Made by a program: the position numbers and the translations under genes. A stretch of DNA of 64,000 nucleotides from Candidatus Hadarchaeota archaeon (lineage in GTDB: Archaea; Hadarchaeota; Hadarchaeia; Hadarchaeales; WYZ-LMO6), in contig CAZDZG010000001.1 of NCBI GenBank assembly GCA_964509845.1, positions 4,078 to 68,077 on the forward strand. The letters are read 5' to 3'. Below, in pieces: positions 680 to 25,693 of the stretch. Position 1 is the stretch's first letter; every line of letters begins with the position of its first letter. The notes beneath the pieces are model-generated. The model made no database searches. It worked only from the letters and a program-made list of their open reading frames with translations, and was not told the DNA's origin.

Positions 680-1729
680 TCAGAAGTACTCTCCCACCCT
701 CTCCAGAGCCCTGGCCACCAGCTCGCTGGCGGCCTTGAGGTCGGAAAGATCCAGCACTTCCACTCCGGAGTGGAGGTAGCGGGTGGGGATGCTTATCACC
801 CCCGTGGGGATTCCCGCCCTGGTGAGGGAGATGGCGGTGGCGTCGGTGGTTCCTCCCCTGGCCACGTCCAGCTGGTAGGGGATCCCGTGGGCCTCAGCGG
901 TTTCCGTGAGCCAGCGGAGCACCTTCTCCGAGACGATGATGCCCCTGCCACTGGCATCCGTGACGGTGAGGGAGGGGCCCTTCCCCAGCTCCAGCGAGGA
1001 GTCCTTCTTCTCCATGCCAGGATAATCCCCCGGTAGGGAGACATCCAGGGCTAGGGCTACGGAGGGCTGGAGGCCGAAGGCGGAGGTCCGGGCCCCTTTG
1101 AGCCCCACCTCTTCCTGCACCGTCCCCACCGCGTACAGGGTATGCCTGCTTTTGGTGTTTTTGATGGCCTCTATCATCACCGCCAGCCCCGCCCTGTTGT
1201 CAAAGGCCTTCCCCGTGATCCTTCCTCCGAGGAGGGGCCTCACCTGGCGGTCCAGGCAGGCCACGGACCCCACCCCTATGCCTGCCTCCCTCACCTCGGC
1301 CTCGCTTCTGGCCCCCACATCGATGAACATGTTCTCCACCTTCACCGGTTTCTTCCTTTCCTCCTCCTCCAGCAGGTGAGGGGGTTTGGAGCCTATCACC
1401 CCGTAGACGGGGCCCTTCTTCGTGCGGAAGACCACCCTTTCGTTCAGGAGGGTCTGATCGAACCATCCACCCAAGGGAACGAACCTTATGAAGCCCTTCT
1501 CGTCGATGTGCTTGACCATGAGTCCTATCTCGTCCATGTGTGCCGCTATCATGCAGGAAGGTTCGGAGCCCCTCCTCACGGCGATCAGGTTGCCCATGGT
1601 GTCTCTTCTTATCTCATCCACATATCCCTGCAGCTCCCCCCTTACCACCTCAGCCACCTCGTCCTCCCTTCCCGAAACCCCTACGGCATTGGAAAGCCTC
1701 TCCAGCAACTCTTCGATTCCGGCCATCAC
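680..1729 (-). CDS. M42-family metallo-aminopeptidase (TET/FrvX-like)
   Basis: 349-aa ORF with the conserved M42 pattern (HMDEIG...GKAFDNRAG...EEVGLKGA...GGTTDA). Confidence 0.8.
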   Translation of the reverse strand: MMAGIEELLERLSNAVGVSGREDEVAEVVRGELQGYVDEIRRDTMGNLIAVRRGSEPSCMIAAHMDEIGLMVKHIDEKGFIRFVPLGGWFDQTLLNERVVFRTKKGPVYGVIGSKPPHLLEEEERKKPVKVENMFIDVGARSEAEVREAGIGVGSVACLDRQVRPLLGGRITGKAFDNRAGLAVMIEAIKNTKSRHTLYAVGTVQEEVGLKGARTSAFGLQPSVALALDVSLPGDYPGMEKKDSSLELGKGPSLTVTDASGRGIIVSEKVLRWLTETAEAHGIPYQLDVARGGTTDATAISLTRAGIPTGVISIPTRYLHSGVEVLDLSDLKAASELVARALERVGEYF

Positions 1730-1784: not shown

Positions 1785-2528
1785 ATGAAGGTGGTTTACG
1801 ATGAGAGATTTCGCACCGTTTACTCCTCCGATCCGGCCTCGGCTCCGGGCAGGATGGAGGCCATCGTGAAGGAGCTCGGCGGCTTCGAGTTCGTGAAACC
1901 CGAGCCGGCCTCCGAGGAAGAGATTTTGCTGGTTCACTCCCCCTCCCATCTGGAGAGGGTGAAGGCCCTGCCCTCCGTCTACCCCCTGGCCCTCCTGGCA
2001 GCGGGAGGGGCCATAAAGGCCTCGGAGCTGGCGGTGAGAGGGGAGCCCTCCTTCGCCCTCATCCGGCCTCCAGGGCATCATGCGGGACCAAGCAGCTGCT
2101 GGGGCTTCTGCTACTTCAACAACCTGGCCATCTCCCTCCGCAGGCTGCTGAGGCTGGGAAGGATCAGGAAGGGGGCGGTGGTGGATTTTGATCTCCACTA
2201 CGGAGATGGTACGGCCTCCATCTTTTCTGGCTCCCGGGAGGTTTCCTATCATCATGCGGAAGGGACGAGGGAGGAGATCCTGGAGGGAATAGCCTCTTTC
2301 CTGGAGAAAGGGGACTACGAGGTAATAGCGGTCTCGGCCGGGTTTGACAACCACTTGGAGGACTGGGGAGGGACCCTCAGCACCGATGACTACAGGGAGA
2401 TAGGGGAGACGGTGAAGGAGTGGTCCCTGAGGAAGTGTGGGGGGAGGAGGTACGGGGTGCTGGAGGGCGGATACAACCTCTCCGTCCTGGGCCGGAACGT
2501 CAGGGCCTTCCTGGAGGGTTTCGGATGA
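1785..2528 (+). CDS. Compact histone-deacetylase/acetoin-utilisation (arginase-deacetylase fold) family protein
   Basis: RPPGHHA, DFDLHYGDGT and EGGY motifs are present. The start was moved to the internal ATG at 1785, which has a GAAGGGGG Shine-Dalgarno; the upstream part of the track ORF is antisense to the M42 gene. Confidence 0.7.
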   Translation: MKVVYDERFRTVYSSDPASAPGRMEAIVKELGGFEFVKPEPASEEEILLVHSPSHLERVKALPSVYPLALLAAGGAIKASELAVRGEPSFALIRPPGHHAGPSSCWGFCYFNNLAISLRRLLRLGRIRKGAVVDFDLHYGDGTASIFSGSREVSYHHAEGTREEILEGIASFLEKGDYEVIAVSAGFDNHLEDWGGTLSTDDYREIGETVKEWSLRKCGGRRYGVLEGGYNLSVLGRNVRAFLEGFG

Positions 2529-3586
2529 GGGAAGGGGAGGAACTCAGGGCTTTCCGCCACGAGGTCGGACCCATCCGTCCCCCCTCGGAGGGAGGAAACA
2601 GCTCGTTGCTCCTCAGGGTGACCAGAAACTGTCCTTGGTCTCTCTGCAAGTTCTGCTACGGTAAGCCCTACGGAAGGGGGAGGTTCTCAATCAGGGGGGT
2701 GGAGGAGGTGAAGGAGGAGGTGAGGAGGCTGGGCAGGGCCGTGGAGGTTCTGGAGCGGATGGGGGAGAGGGCCTGGGAGTTCCTTTTCAGCCTGCCCGAG
2801 GAGGAGAGGGGGGGCCTTCACAACCTCTTCTCCTGGTTCTTTTCGGGGAGGAAGACGGTTTTCCTGCAGGATGCCGACACCCTCCTGGTACCCACCCCCA
2901 GGCTGGTGGAGATCCTGGAGGAGGTGAGAAGGAGGCTGGGGGAGATGGAGAGAATCACCTGTTATGCCAGGGGCAGGTCGCTCTTCAGGAAACCTGAGCG
3001 GGAGCTCAGGCAACTCAGGGAAGCGGGGCTCTCCAGACTCCACGTGGGCCTAGAAAGCGGGGACGAGGAGGTGCTGAGGAGGATGAACAAGGGCCTAACC
3101 CCCACCGAGGTGGTGGAGGGAGGGAGGAGGGCTAGGGAGGCGGGCTTGCAGCTCTCCCTTTACTACATCTTGGGGCTCGGTGGGGAGGAAAGGTGGGAGG
3201 AGCACGCCAGGGAAACGGCGAGGGTCATCAACGAGGTGGATCCGGAGTTCGTAAGGGTGAGGAGGCTTGTCCCGTTAAGGGGGACCCCGCTCTTCAGGGA
3301 GGTGGAGGAGGGAATCTTCAGACTGCAGAGCCCCCACGGGGAGCTGAGGGAGCTGAAACTGCTGGTGGAAGAGCTGGAATTCTCGGGAAGGCTCTGCTTC
3401 GACCACTTTGCCAATCCTTTCTACCTCACCCCGCGGGGACCAAGATGGCTGCTGAAGCAGGATTACGACGGCTATCTTTTCCCCCGGGAGAAGGAGGAGG
3501 TCCTGAAAAGAATAGAGGAGGGATTGGAGATAGAGGAAACTCTCTACGTTAGCTCGGCGGACCTCTCCTCCCTGGAGATCCTCTGA
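2525..3586 (+). CDS. Radical SAM enzyme with a non-canonical Cx4Cx2C cluster motif (Elp3-related, stand-alone, no GNAT domain)
   Basis: Motif NCPWSLCKFCYG followed by a radical-SAM core (FLQDADT...HVGLESGDEEVL...ILGLGGE). Its start overlaps the HDAC stop as ATGA. Confidence 0.65.
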   Translation: MREGEELRAFRHEVGPIRPPSEGGNSSLLLRVTRNCPWSLCKFCYGKPYGRGRFSIRGVEEVKEEVRRLGRAVEVLERMGERAWEFLFSLPEEERGGLHNLFSWFFSGRKTVFLQDADTLLVPTPRLVEILEEVRRRLGEMERITCYARGRSLFRKPERELRQLREAGLSRLHVGLESGDEEVLRRMNKGLTPTEVVEGGRRAREAGLQLSLYYILGLGGEERWEEHARETARVINEVDPEFVRVRRLVPLRGTPLFREVEEGIFRLQSPHGELRELKLLVEELEFSGRLCFDHFANPFYLTPRGPRWLLKQDYDGYLFPREKEEVLKRIEEGLEIEETLYVSSADLSSLEIL

Positions 3587-3588
3587 GC

Positions 3589-3768
3589 TCACTCGGGGAA
3601 GGTTATGGCGCCGGTGGTGCAGACGGCCTCGCAGGCCCTGCAGTCCACGCACTCGTCGGGCTTCGTCACCCTGGCCTTCTTGTTATTCAGCTCTATCACG
3701 CTGACGGGACAGGCGTTCACACACTCCCCACAACCCGAGCATTTCTCCTGATCTATCTTGGGTGGCAT
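3589..3768 (-). CDS. 2x[4Fe-4S] ferredoxin, 59 aa (not in the ORF track)
   Basis: Manual translation gives MPPKIDQEKCSGCGECVNACPVSVIELNNKKARVTKPDECVDCRACEAVCTTGAITFPE, with two CxxCxxCxxxCP motifs. Confidence 0.75.
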   Translation of the reverse strand: MPPKIDQEKCSGCGECVNACPVSVIELNNKKARVTKPDECVDCRACEAVCTTGAITFPE

Positions 3769-3823: not shown

Positions 3824-5734
3824 CTAGCTCAGACCGGCCAGGGTGAGGACCCTGAACATCACCCCTCCCAGCCAGAGGGCGAAGAGGCTCTCCGAAAGGG
3901 CTATGAGCAGGGATCTCTTCCAGCCCACCTCCTTCACCAGGGCCGCCAGCGTGGCCACGCAGGGGAAGTAAAACATGGTCACGGTGGCAAAGACGATCAT
4001 CTGGGCCTTGGTGAGGTGCAGGGTGAGGTCGGATCCCAGGAGGAGAGTGAGCATGATGAGGGTCAGTTCCTTCCTGAGCACGCCGAAGAGAAGGACCGCC
4101 CCCGCCACCGCCGGCAGGCCCAGCCAGCCCGCGGTGACGGGACTCAGGGAATCGGAGAGGGAGTCCAGGAGCCCCGTCACCCTCAGGGCCGTGAGGAGAA
4201 GGCTTCCACCTAGGATGAAGGGAAGGGCCAGGTAAAGGAAGTCTTTGGTTCTCTCCCAGCTACCCCTGAGCACCGTGGGAAGGTGGGGGCGGCGGTAGGG
4301 GGGGATCTCCAGGATGAGACCCATGGGCTCCCCCGGAAGCACCTTGTAGGCCAGCCTTCCCAGAAGCAGGATCACGAGCAGATCCAGCAGGTAGAGGCCC
4401 AGCGCCCAGCCTATTCCCACGAACCTTCCCACCAGCCCCAGGATCACCACGGTGCGGGCGGCACAGGGCACCAGCGTGGAAAGGAAGATGGAGAGGGTCC
4501 TCTCCCTCTCCGTTTCCATGATCCTGCAGCTCAGGCAGGCGGGGACGTTGCAGCCGTATCCCAGCAGGAGGGGAATGAAGGCCTTCCCGTGCACCCCCAT
4601 CTTGTGCATCAGCCCGTCCATCAGGAAAGCCGCCCGGGCCAGGTATCCCGTGTCCTCCAGCAGGGTCAGGAGCACGTAGAAGGGGAGGACGAAGGGAAGG
4701 GCAATGGTCAGGCCCGCCAGGATGCCCCCCAGCACCCCCTCCCCCACCAGCTCCCCTAGCCTCTGCGAGGTGGCCCTCACCAGCGGATCGGTTATCTCCT
4801 CCAGGACCCCCCCTACCCTTGAGCCTACCCAGAAGACCAGGAGGAAGAGGGACAAGAAAACGGTGGCCAAAATGGGATAGCCCAGGACGGGATGGGTGGT
4901 GAGGGCATCGAGCTTCTCCTCCGGGAGGGGATGCGGGGAGAGCTCCTGGCACCTCCTCGCTATCCTGCTGGCCCACTGGTATCGGTGGGAGGTGAGGAGG
5001 AGCTGGATCCCCTCCCCGTACAACCTCTCCAGCTCGCGGGCGTACAGGTCAGCCAGTTCTACCGCTTCGGGTGAGCTCCTTCTGACCAGTCTCCTCACCT
5101 CCTCGTCCCCCTCGAGGAGCCTCAGGGCCACCCACCTGGGGGGATACCTGAGCTTCCCCCTCAGGAGGGGAAGGAGGTGGGAGACCCTCCTCTCGATCTC
5201 CCTTCCGTACCGGAACTCCCTGGGCCTCGCCCTCCTCCCCTCGGCCACCTCTAGGGCCTTCTCCAGCAGGGCCTGGATTCCCCTTCCCCTGATGGCCACG
5301 GTGGGGACGACGGGGACCCCCAGCAGCTTCTCCAGCTCCTTAGGGTCCACCCTTATGCCTTTCCTCCGGGCCACATCCATCTGGTTCAGGGCTATCACCA
5401 TCTTGGGCCCCAGCTCCAGCAACTGCAGGGTGAAGAAGAGGTTCCTCTCCAGCGCAGAAGCGTCCACCACGTTGATCACCACGTCCGGTCTCTCCTCGGC
5501 GATGTACTCCCTGGAGATCCTCTCCTCCAGCGAGAAGGAGGAGAGGGAGTAGACGCCAGGAAGATCCACCACGTCTATGAACCTACCCCGGAAGTACAGG
5601 CTCCCCTCCCTCTTCTCCACCGTCTTCCCTGGCCAGTTCCCCACGTGCTGGTGGAGTCCAGTTAGATGGTTGAAGATCACCGACTTTCCCACGTTGGCGT
5701 TGCCTGCCAGGGCTATCCGGAGCTTGGGTTTCAT
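3824..5734 (-). CDS. feoB: Ferrous iron transporter FeoB (N-terminal G-domain plus membrane domain)
   Basis: GNANVGKS G1 motif followed by a long polytopic membrane region; 636 aa. Confidence 0.9.
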   Translation of the reverse strand: MKPKLRIALAGNANVGKSVIFNHLTGLHQHVGNWPGKTVEKREGSLYFRGRFIDVVDLPGVYSLSSFSLEERISREYIAEERPDVVINVVDASALERNLFFTLQLLELGPKMVIALNQMDVARRKGIRVDPKELEKLLGVPVVPTVAIRGRGIQALLEKALEVAEGRRARPREFRYGREIERRVSHLLPLLRGKLRYPPRWVALRLLEGDEEVRRLVRRSSPEAVELADLYARELERLYGEGIQLLLTSHRYQWASRIARRCQELSPHPLPEEKLDALTTHPVLGYPILATVFLSLFLLVFWVGSRVGGVLEEITDPLVRATSQRLGELVGEGVLGGILAGLTIALPFVLPFYVLLTLLEDTGYLARAAFLMDGLMHKMGVHGKAFIPLLLGYGCNVPACLSCRIMETERERTLSIFLSTLVPCAARTVVILGLVGRFVGIGWALGLYLLDLLVILLLGRLAYKVLPGEPMGLILEIPPYRRPHLPTVLRGSWERTKDFLYLALPFILGGSLLLTALRVTGLLDSLSDSLSPVTAGWLGLPAVAGAVLLFGVLRKELTLIMLTLLLGSDLTLHLTKAQMIVFATVTMFYFPCVATLAALVKEVGWKRSLLIALSESLFALWLGGVMFRVLTLAGLS

Positions 5735-5736
5735 CT

Positions 5737-6354
5737 CTACACCGAGGGCTTGACGAAGATTCTGGAGGCCAGGCCCTTTCCCACCGCCAGGGTGGTACCC
5801 CTGACCTTGAGCATCAGGGGACCCCGGAAGAGGGCGGATTTCAGCACCTCCACCTCCGTCCCCGGGAGGATCCCCAGCTCGGCCAGCCTGCGGCAGGAGG
5901 AGCCCCCTCCCAGCAGGAGGGAAACGGTTCCCTTCTGGCCCTCGAGCAGGGCCGTCAGGGGAAGGGAACCTTCGGGGACCCCCTCCGGGAGGTTCTGGCT
6001 CTCCACCTGGCGGTGAAGGGCCACCTCCACCTCATCAGGGATGTGGTGCTCCAGCTCGCAGGCCTTCCGATGGGCCTGCGAAGGGGAGAGACCCAGCGTG
6101 CTCAAGAACCTTTCCATCACCCTGTGTTTTCGCAGGATGTTCTTCCCCACCCTCTCCCCTTTTCGGGTGAGGACCACCCCCCGGTAGGGCTGGTGCCTAA
6201 GATAGCCCTCCCTAGCCAGCTTCTTCAGCATGGAGGTGGCGCTTGGGGGGGTAACTCCGAGCTCCTTGGCCACCCTTCCCGTGGTGATCCTCACCCCCCT
6301 CTCCTTCAGACGGTACAGGGCCTCCAGGTACTCCTCGGAGCTTTCGGTGACCAT
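5737..6354 (-). CDS. DtxR/MntR-family metal-dependent repressor fused to a C-terminal FeoA (SH3-like) domain
   Basis: N-terminal DtxR helix-turn-helix and metal-binding region, C-terminal FeoA-like GQKGTVSLL...GILPGTEVEV. Its stop lies 2 nt before the feoB start. Confidence 0.8.
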   Translation of the reverse strand: MVTESSEEYLEALYRLKERGVRITTGRVAKELGVTPPSATSMLKKLAREGYLRHQPYRGVVLTRKGERVGKNILRKHRVMERFLSTLGLSPSQAHRKACELEHHIPDEVEVALHRQVESQNLPEGVPEGSLPLTALLEGQKGTVSLLLGGGSSCRRLAELGILPGTEVEVLKSALFRGPLMLKVRGTTLAVGKGLASRIFVKPSV

Positions 6355-7849: not shown

Positions 7850-9007
7850 ATGAGGGTGGCAATGCTGGCCTGGGAGTCCATGCACTCCATCTGGATAGGG
7901 GGACTGGGAGTGGTGGTCAGCAAGCTCTCGGAGGAGCTTGCCAGGAGGGGCCACGAGGTTCACCTCTTCACCAGGTGGGCGGAGGGGCAGGAGGAGCACC
8001 AGGAGGTGGGGGGAGTCCACTACCACCGATGCAAGTTCGACCCAGGCCACGACCTTCTCTCCTTCGCCCACAACATGTCCCATGCCATGGTAGCCGCCCT
8101 GAAGTGGGTGGAGGGGAGGGAGGGGAGGTTTGACCTCATCCACGGCCACGATTGGCACGTGGTGGAGGCCCTTCGCTTGCTCAAGCAGGAAGGAAGACCT
8201 CTGGTTTTCACCTATCACTCCACCGAGTACGGCAGGAACGGGAACAAGTTCGGGGAATGGCGGGAGTTCAGGGAGATCTCCGAGAGGGAGTGGTACGGGG
8301 GGTACCTGGCGGACAGGGTGACCACCGTCTCGGCCTACCTGAAGAGGGAGGTGTGCTGGCTTTACCGCCTGCCGGAGGAGAAGGTGGAGGTGGTGCCCAA
8401 CGCCGTGGTGGCGGAGGAGTTCAGGAGGGAGGTGGATCCCGAGAAGGTGAAGGGGGAGTATGGGCTCCCTTCCGGTCCCCTGGTAGTATTCCCGGGTCGC
8501 CTGGAGTACCAGAAGGGTCCCGATCTCCTGCTGGAGGCCATCCCCAGGGTGCTGGAGAGGAGGGAAGCGGGTTTCGCCTTCACGGGAACCGGAAGCATGA
8601 GGGGGGGACTGGAGCAGAGGGCGAGGGAGCTGGGAGTGGCGCACGTTGTCAGGTTCGTGGGCTTCCTCCCCTTCCAGAAGTACGTGGAGCTCCTCAACGC
8701 CTGCGACCTGGTCTGCATACCCAGCCGCAACGAGCCCTTCGGTATCGTGCTTCTCGAGGCCTGGGCGGCGGGAAAGCCGGTGGTGGCCACCGGGGTTGGG
8801 GGTCTGGACGAAAACCTGGAGAACATGGCGGAGGGGATAAAGGTCCCCCCCCAGCCCGACTCCCTGGCCTGGGCGATCAACTATCTCCTGGATTCCCCCT
8901 CCGAGAGGGAGAGGATGGCGGGGAACGCCAGGGAGAGGGTCAAAAAGTTCACCTGGTCGAGATCCGTGGATAAGCTTCTGGATGTTTACGGGAGCATCCT
9001 GAGCTGA
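7850..9007 (+). CDS. Second GT4-family glycosyltransferase (glycogen-synthase-like)
   Basis: IGGLGVVV near the N-terminus and EPFG...G in the C-terminal half. Confidence 0.75.
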   Translation: MRVAMLAWESMHSIWIGGLGVVVSKLSEELARRGHEVHLFTRWAEGQEEHQEVGGVHYHRCKFDPGHDLLSFAHNMSHAMVAALKWVEGREGRFDLIHGHDWHVVEALRLLKQEGRPLVFTYHSTEYGRNGNKFGEWREFREISEREWYGGYLADRVTTVSAYLKREVCWLYRLPEEKVEVVPNAVVAEEFRREVDPEKVKGEYGLPSGPLVVFPGRLEYQKGPDLLLEAIPRVLERREAGFAFTGTGSMRGGLEQRARELGVAHVVRFVGFLPFQKYVELLNACDLVCIPSRNEPFGIVLLEAWAAGKPVVATGVGGLDENLENMAEGIKVPPQPDSLAWAINYLLDSPSERERMAGNARERVKKFTWSRSVDKLLDVYGSILS

Positions 9008-25261: not shown

Positions 25262-25693
25262 TTAGGCTCGGAGCCCCCTGGCCTTCTTTCCCGCCGAGGT
25301 CAAGCCCCTGAACACCCTCCCCTTGGCCTTTATCTGGGAAAGCTGGGGATCGCTCTTGATCACCGGGTGATGGGGATCGATCATTATCACCTCGTAGTAC
25401 TCGTACCTGCCGTCGGAGGCCACCCAGTAGGAGTTCAAGACCTCCAGGTTGGGATACTTCCTGGCGGCCCTCTCCTCCGCCATCCACTGGAGGCTCTTGC
25501 CGGGGGTAAACTTCAGGACCCCCATCCTCTTGGGCTTCCTCCCCCTGGAGGGTCTCGGCTTCCTCCTCCCCCCCTTCCTGACCCTCACCCTCACCACCAC
25601 CACCCCCTGCTTGGCCTTGTAACCCAGTCTCCTGGCCCTCGCCAGCTTGGTGGGCTTGGGAATCCTCACCACCGAGGGCTCCTCGGCCTTCAT
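25262..25693 (-). CDS. rpl15e: Ribosomal protein L15e (appears N-terminally short)
   Basis: [14 protein letters not shown]...LNSYWV...IMIDPHHP core conserved; there is no room for the usual first ~35 residues. Confidence 0.85.

Follow-up and report, generated by a model that had tools for sequence, protein, structure and literature searches.

A compact HDAC-family gene overlaps the gene of an uncharacterised CX4CX2C radical SAM protein in a Hadarchaeales archaeon

Closest described systems and layout of the locus

Classical zinc-dependent deacylases rely on a tandem His-His pair, Asp-His-Asp metal ligands and the Tyr of an EGGY motif, as established by HDAC enzymology. The class II-like members used here for comparison were HDAC6, HDAC10, HdaH/ApaH, the Burkholderia protein of PDB entry 5ji5 and the lysine deacylase 5zmp. 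Among radical SAM (rSAM) proteins, Elp3 of M. infernus (PDB 6ia8/6iad) has a cluster loop, AKCPHGKCIFCPG, with CX4CX2C spacing, which is also on record in OxsB as well as in a separate megacluster of RadicalSAM.org. The class B cores HpnJ, PhpK, MgmA (9ccb) and OxsB carry an N-terminal B12-binding domain, and MnmL/YtqA (TIGR01212) and RaSEA (TIGR01210) are stand-alone, GNAT-less proteins with non-canonical cluster loops. No paper was found by literature search on the rSAM family described below, or on any connection of an HDAC-fold protein with an rSAM protein in archaea, and the term 'radical SAM' is nowhere mentioned in the main text of a survey of the classical deacylases.

Genes for both types of protein were found side by side in the window, a stretch of 64,000 nucleotides from a Candidatus Hadarchaeota archaeon. 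Nearest homologues of the two encoded proteins carry Hadarchaeales or Hadesarchaea names. The features of the locus, in window coordinates, are as follows.

680..1729, minus strand: divergent M42 aminopeptidase gene (PF05343, E 2e-106), found upstream also in loci L001, L081 and L091
1750..1761, no strand: AAAAAGTTTTTT palindrome, read from the sequence, within the 55-nt divergent intergenic region
1785..2528, plus strand: HDAC-family gene (ATG 1785, TGA 2526-2528) for a compact classical Zn-dependent deacylase of 247 aa
2076..2081, plus strand: codons of the tandem catalytic His98-His99 in RPPGHHA, aligned to RPPGHHA of HDAC6 and invariant in 68 sequences
2184..2210, plus strand: DFDLHYGDG metal-site motif (D134, D136, H138), aligned to DWDVHHGNG of HDAC6 and invariant
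2513..2518, plus strand: GGAGGG, a Shine-Dalgarno-like element read from the sequence, 6 nt 5' of the rSAM ATG and within the HDAC coding region
2525..2528, plus strand: ATGA start/stop overlap of the two genes (ATG 2525-2527 over TGA 2526-2528), read from the sequence
2525..3586, plus strand: rSAM gene (ATG 2525, TGA 3584-3586) for a stand-alone protein of 353 aa from an uncharacterised family
2630..2656, plus strand: cluster loop CPWSLCKFC (C36-x4-C41-x2-C44), read from the sequence, invariant in 77 sequences and aligning with the archaeal Elp3 loop
2861..2878, plus strand: FLQDAD stretch (aa 113-118) past the second strand, with F113, Q115, D116 and A117 invariant; the HpnJ and PhpK matches begin here
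3589..3768, minus strand: convergent ferredoxin gene (ORF and ferredoxin family matches; 59 aa, 2x[4Fe-4S]), ending 2 nt past the rSAM stop

The start codons of both genes were supported by comparison with homologues. ATG 1785 is backed by the N-termini of HDAC homologues (MK[IV]V[FY]), and ATG 2525 by 353-aa homologues of 82-99% identity together with the family alignment; longer open frames from 1488 and 2420 were rejected as gene starts, since the homologues begin at these two codons. Third-position GC is high in both ORFs (0.77-0.78). The GGAGGG element at 2513-2518 would serve as the ribosome-binding element of the rSAM gene, and the two genes are probably co-transcribed from a promoter in the short A/T-rich spacer of 55 nt that is common with the M42 gene. 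The centre of the AAAAAGTTTTTT palindrome in this spacer lies about 30 nt from the start codons of both the M42 peptidase and the HDAC gene, and it could possibly act as a shared TATA-like promoter element.

The first-pass annotation had described the HDAC stop as overlapping the rSAM start in an ATGA, and the coordinates bear this out. Overlaps of 4 nt between start and stop codons are, moreover, common across the window (62% GC), including between unrelated genes. Confirmed examples are provided by the exosome genes, by an aminotransferase/ornithine carbamoyltransferase pair and by the functionally unrelated genes of a 2-hydroxyacid dehydrogenase and ribosomal protein L15e. Because such overlaps are frequent in the window, that of the HDAC and rSAM genes is not unusual here; their translational coupling is a matter of genome compaction and is, alone, no sign of shared function. 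The pair had also been described as sitting alone and divergent from the M42 gene. The divergent M42 gene is where this account placed it, but the pair is not strictly alone, as the ferredoxin gene ends just past the rSAM stop. Its product is a plausible electron donor to the rSAM cluster.

The compact HDAC-fold protein

The 247-aa product of the first gene matched PF00850 above the gathering threshold (E 5.7e-42) and has the HDAC/arginase fold; its solved-structure matches by sequence search were HDAC6, HDAC10, bacterial HDAH/APAH and lysine deacylases. Four motifs, IRPPGHHA (aa 93-100), DFDLHYGDG (aa 134-142), SAGFD (aa 184-188) and LEGGY (aa 226-230), show no variation in an alignment of 68 family members and match the corresponding motifs of HDAC6, such that the catalytic set H98/H99, D136/H138, D188 and Y230 is present. 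The description of this protein as a compact HDAC with intact motifs was thus borne out by the profile match and the family alignment.

Compared to HDAC6, the segment from the DxHxGDG motif to SAGFD spans 23 residues instead of 64 (query 155-178 vs chain 596-660), a difference of about 41 residues. It is mainly the shortness of this segment, between the metal-site and SAGFD strands, that makes the protein compact, and it also splits the PF00850 match, the first stretch of which stops at profile position 169 of 298. Consistent with the split match and the roughly 41 missing residues, the 247-aa protein does not have all of the rim loops from which the acyl-lysine channel is built. Compact homologues are 242-263 aa in length and about 60% identical, and none of the NCBIfam models covers this family. 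Its members were found in Hadarchaeales, Thermoprotei, Aigarchaeota, Bathyarchaeia, Thaumarchaeota, Archaeoglobus, Promethearchaeota, Nezhaarchaeota and Syntrophaceae.

Judged by its motifs, the first gene product is a minimal class II-like metal-dependent deacylase in which every catalytic residue has been kept. Its reaction would most likely be hydrolysis of an N-acyl amide, with a lysine, a polyamine or some small molecule as the acylated group. On the basis of established HDAC chemistry and the motifs present, a metal-activated water, assisted by the His-His pair and the Tyr, would attack the amide.

The stand-alone radical SAM protein

The 353-aa product of the second gene matched PF04055 above the gathering threshold (E 1.1e-20), and both the three-Cys cluster motif and a partial TIM-barrel core are present, the first strand of the core starting at residue 27 in an AF2 model. 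As the first-pass annotation had stated, the motif NCPWSLCKFC (aa 35-44) is of the form C-x4-C-x2-C, and C36, C41 and C44 are all invariant in 77 sequences of the family. Also invariant in these 77 homologues are an N-terminal GPIRPPSEGG, FLQDA and a C-terminal CFDH..N..Y module; an auxiliary Cys cluster is not conserved in the same alignment. By analogy with the D-A-N form of the 'GGE'-type SAM-binding motif described for TokK, the FLQDAD stretch probably corresponds to that motif. If the chemistry common to the superfamily applies, a single [4Fe-4S] cluster held by C36, C41 and C44 would cleave SAM reductively, and the resulting 5'-deoxyadenosyl radical would act on the substrate of the enzyme.

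The protein had further been described as standing alone without a GNAT domain, and this proved correct: PF04055 was the only Pfam domain of the 353-aa protein and of its close homologues (332-387 aa), with no GNAT or acetyl-CoA-binding domain in either. Profile searches likewise left it outside every characterised family, as no curated NCBIfam model came near its cutoff for the window protein, and the same pattern was observed for all 77 members. The best partial matches were to class B cores, with 55.6 bits for HpnJ and 52.8 bits for PhpK; MnmL/YtqA scored 31.6 bits and Elp3 23.5 bits. The family is large, with at least 588 confirmed loci on one-genome-per-species contigs and at least 673 clusters at 50% identity (E<=1e-30). 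Archaeal members were found in Hadarchaeota, Nezhaarchaeota, Bathyarchaeia, Syntrophoarchaeum, Methanoliparum, Methanolliviera, Hydrothermarchaeota and Thermoplasmata, and bacterial members in Dehalococcoidia and many Desulfobacterota.

Two readings of this protein were weighed against the profile and structure comparisons. According to one, it would be the GNAT-less Elp3 domain of a split Elp3-like system for tRNA wobble uridine, in which the HDAC-fold partner handles the acetyl group. The Elp3 spacing cited in the first-pass annotation is real for the archaeal enzymes: the M. infernus loop aligns with RnCPWskCkfCyg, with the same CX4CX2C spacing, and the archaeal Elp3 proteins and the rSAM family have a C-P-x-x-x-C-x-[FY]-C loop in common. 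When the family profile was compared to the PDB, archaeal Elp3 ranked first (E 2e-11, core positions 173-291), 76 of the 77 members matched the Elp3 model TIGR01211 weakly (best E 7.6e-13, far below the cutoff), and PF16199 (Radical_SAM_C) was found sub-threshold in three distant relatives (20.6-25.4 bits vs a cutoff of 31.9). PF16199 was not detected by Pfam in the window protein, and the TIGR01211 match of this protein (E 1.8e-5) covered residues 158-266 only, with its 23.5 bits set against a cutoff of 350. The alignments to Elp3 begin at residue 157-158 for the single protein and at profile position 140-173 for the family profile; those to HpnJ and PhpK, which outscore Elp3, extend back to residue 112-114 in FLQDAD. 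The resemblance is remote and non-exclusive, as OxsB and the separate megacluster also have CX4CX2C. The specific Elp3 relationship that had been proposed was therefore not upheld. From its sequence, the window protein has a real but remote resemblance to Elp3 and is not a member of that family, and a split Elp3-like system is very improbable.

According to the other reading, the protein would be a trimmed relative of the class B enzymes that does without a B12 domain of its own, for example a non-methylating, C-H-activating enzyme unconnected to the HDAC. This agrees with the order of the NCBIfam scores and with the structure search made with the single window sequence, in which B12-dependent MgmA (9ccb) ranked first. 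The class B scores are, however, an order of magnitude under the family cutoffs, the family profile preferred Elp3 among solved structures, and the N-terminal B12-binding domain of the class B cores is absent, with no Pfam match to the B12-binding Rossmann domain PF02310, PF04055 as the sole domain and a core that begins at about residue 27. We consider this reading unlikely. MnmL/YtqA and RaSEA resemble the window protein in being stand-alone, GNAT-less, of similar size and non-canonical in the cluster loop, and weak matches within the family were seen for TIGR01212 (77 of 77) and TIGR01210 (62 of 77). The best score of the window protein to either was the 31.6 bits given above (cutoff 180), and no conserved partner of the MnmM or ArcS type was found near the rSAM family genes of 80 loci.

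Distribution of the gene pair and its interpretation

Adjacency of the two genes was examined in related genomes and was found in three relatives. In L001, a Hadesarchaea MAG (rSAM 85% identity), the HDAC gene lies directly upstream of the rSAM gene. In L091/92, from Hadarchaeales (rSAM 75% identity), the 4-nt overlap is identical and the block is syntenic throughout, from M42 (minus), HDAC and rSAM to ferredoxin (minus), FeoB (minus), DtxR-FeoA (minus) and a glycosyltransferase. In the deeper relative L081/82 (rSAM 55%, HDAC 65%), genes for DUF6114 and M42 are still upstream and ferredoxin is downstream; a UbiE-like methyltransferase gene and a gene for a 263-aa rSAM protein are inserted before the HDAC, and the genes past the ferredoxin differ. 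As neither the window nor any other locus has these two inserted genes, they were rejected as part of a wider conserved cluster. The spacing of the HDAC and rSAM genes is tight throughout (overlapping by 4 nt both in the window and in L091, 0-15 nt in L081), and of all the neighbours ferredoxin alone remains beside the pair where the flanking genes differ (L001, L081/82, L091/92). That the HDAC-rSAM-ferredoxin trio is intact in L081 despite the insertions hints at selection for linkage within the lineage. Ferredoxin and the M42 peptidase were both rejected as general partners of the rSAM family, as they are found beside it only in loci of the Hadarchaeota type.

By contrast to this conservation within Hadarchaeota, no pairing was detected outside this lineage. 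When an HDAC was sought within about 6 kb in the best 80 of the 588 rSAM family loci, it was absent from 79, with L001 the sole exception. The loci that lack it include those of Nezhaarchaeota, Bathyarchaeia, Syntrophoarchaeum, Methanoliparum, Desulfobacterota and Dehalococcoidia. Conversely, this rSAM was absent from all nine contexts of the compact HDAC examined outside Hadarchaeota (other archaea and Syntrophaceae), in which the neighbours include CN-hydrolase, CofG/CofH, DUF169, DUF362/topoisomerase, AMP-ligase and TM1506. Two candidates for a second HDAC-rSAM pairing were rejected: the neighbours in L086 are CofG and CofH (BLASTP to the window rSAM, E 0.089), and L096 has an rSAM protein of the PA0069/Rv2578c type, for which hhalign gave a probability of 3%. 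Neither CofG nor the PA0069-like protein is homologous to the rSAM family of the window. Clustering of the ORFs from the 80 rSAM loci by all-against-all BLAST revealed no recurrent neighbour. The commonest cluster was present in 12 of the 80, differing in distance and orientation from locus to locus, and among the archaeal loci nothing recurred. No HDAC-rSAM fusions were present among the homologues listed, the top matches being single-domain proteins of 242-291 aa and 332-387 aa. Neither an HDAC nor a GNAT fusion was found in the three longest proteins scanned (452-617 aa) of the best 150 rSAM representatives, which carry extra N-terminal sequence, rSAM, Radical_SAM_C or metallo-beta-lactamase domains. 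The pairing is thus limited to a single lineage that comprises Hadarchaeales and a sister clade with the same synteny, and the HDAC and rSAM are two separately distributed, strongly conserved and uncharacterised families. Host taxa of the two families overlap in Bathyarchaeia, Nezhaarchaeota and Syntrophales, and cooperation in trans may be compatible with the missing adjacency elsewhere.

The pair had been proposed to form a two-component system linking (de)acetylation to radical modification. With 79 of 80 rSAM loci and nine of nine HDAC loci unpaired elsewhere and no fusions found, genome comparison gave this proposal no support outside the single lineage. Since the pair is found together only in Hadarchaeota, it looks like local operon packing, and its adjacency, syntenic within the lineage and absent outside it, is best read as one evolutionary event; the juxtaposition would have arisen once, in Hadarchaeota, and then have been inherited with the surrounding synteny. 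We therefore favour, with a probability of about 0.6, the reading that the two genes form a real bicistronic operon in this Hadarchaeales archaeon, but that the HDAC and rSAM proteins would be functionally independent and the gene order would reflect packing in a compact genome.

A pathway specific to Hadarchaeota is the main alternative. In such a pathway, the deacylase would unmask or recycle an intermediate bearing an N-acetyl group, be it an amino sugar, a polyamine, an amino acid or a lysine of a protein; the rSAM enzyme would modify this intermediate before or after the deacylase step, and ferredoxin would reduce the cluster. Translational coupling with a Shine-Dalgarno-like element inside the first gene argues for it, as does the retention of the trio from 100% to 55% rSAM identity while the flanks were rearranged, and no known function contradicts it, as both families are uncharacterised. 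The adjacency has, however, a single origin in one syntenic lineage, unrelated genes overlap in the same window, and neither the loci surveyed elsewhere nor the search for fusions lent it support, so that we hold this pathway to be doubtful. A bolder reading, for which we see only a modest chance, would take the deacylase, the CX4CX2C rSAM protein and ferredoxin as a dedicated three-gene module, with the rSAM family forming a new GNAT-less, B12-less branch between the Elp3/YhcC-like and class B enzymes; the module would then modify a metabolite, a protein or RNA in a new kind of radical reaction coupled to deacetylation, and the chemistry of the rSAM family would be one not yet described. Operon packing of independent genes remains our preferred reading, and the claim of a coupled system should be kept out of annotation.

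The interest of the locus lies in its two families, both of which are reasonable biochemical targets. One is a very large rSAM family of anaerobic archaea and bacteria with an invariant CX4CX2C motif and without an assigned function, whose hosts include several alkane- and methane-metabolising archaeal lineages as well as the cultured Desulfosarcina widdelii and Desulfobacter species. The other is a minimal HDAC of 245 aa, conserved at about 60% identity from one archaeal phylum to another, for which Archaeoglobus sulfaticallidus is a cultured host. If the pair were a true functional unit, it would represent a new way to combine amide hydrolysis with radical chemistry.

Gene neighborhood of the radical SAM family

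The gene encoding the radical SAM (rSAM) protein of the pair, a member of an uncharacterised stand-alone family with a CX4CX2C loop, was found to be convergent to a small ferredoxin gene, which ends 2 nt past the rSAM stop codon.

3589-3768 (-), 59-aa 2x[4Fe-4S] ferredoxin

The rSAM gene retains this ferredoxin as its neighbor in the Hadarchaeota-type loci L001, L091/92 and L081/82, even when a different gene lies beyond the ferredoxin. In rSAM-family loci of other lineages, an adjoining ferredoxin was not found. L081, the deeper Hadarchaeota-like relative, also has a Lactamase_B/ODP gene adjoining the ferredoxin (8205-8849). Two genes are inserted immediately upstream of its HDAC gene (4484-5964): one encodes a UbiE-like methyltransferase, the other a radical SAM protein of 263 aa that weakly matches the families of tungsten-cofactor maturase, viperin and NrdG. 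Neither of these inserted genes was present in the window or in any other locus. P0361, a distant 617-aa relative of the rSAM family, was found to carry a fused N-terminal metallo-beta-lactamase domain.

Among the 80 best genome loci of the rSAM family (L001-L080), lineages noted for metabolizing alkanes or methane, or for syntrophy, were enriched (Syntrophoarchaeum, Methanoliparum, Methanolliviera, Nezha-, Bathy- and Hadarchaeota, Smithella and Desulfosarcina), and the family was also detected in Dehalococcoidia. No neighbor gene in these 80 loci accounts for this distribution.

Other neighbors of the compact HDAC

The compact HDAC, a minimal PF00850 deacylase, was detected beside other genes in other archaea. 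On Thermoprotei/Nezhaarchaeota-type contigs (L085, L089 and L096), a Sua5/YciO/YrdC-family gene lies downstream on the opposite strand, separated from the HDAC gene by an MFS transporter gene in L089 and followed by a geranylgeranyl-reductase-like flavoprotein gene in L085 and L089. In a different archaeal lineage (L086-L088, 5001-8077), the compact HDAC gene overlaps the F420 FO-synthase genes CofG and CofH by 14 nt, another tight HDAC-rSAM juxtaposition, with rSAM families unrelated to that of the window.

Iron-uptake genes were identified just downstream of the HDAC-rSAM pair.

3824-6354 (-), FeoB and a DtxR-FeoA fusion

DtxR, FeoA and FeoB likewise adjoin the compact HDAC in distant Thermoprotei (L089/L090, 972-4033). 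The HDAC and iron-uptake genes may be recurrently associated.

Start-codon overlap and divergent spacer

Elsewhere in the window, the ATG of ribosomal protein L15e overlaps the stop codon of an unrelated 2-hydroxyacid dehydrogenase gene as ATGA.

25262-25693 (-), L15e ORF of only 143 aa, with its Pfam profile match starting at position 31

The spacer between the HDAC gene and the divergent M42 aminopeptidase gene contains a perfect palindrome centered about 30 nt from both start codons.

1750-1761, AAAAAGTTTTTT palindrome

This palindrome may be a bidirectional TATA-like element shared by the M42 and HDAC genes, which would imply very short leaders.
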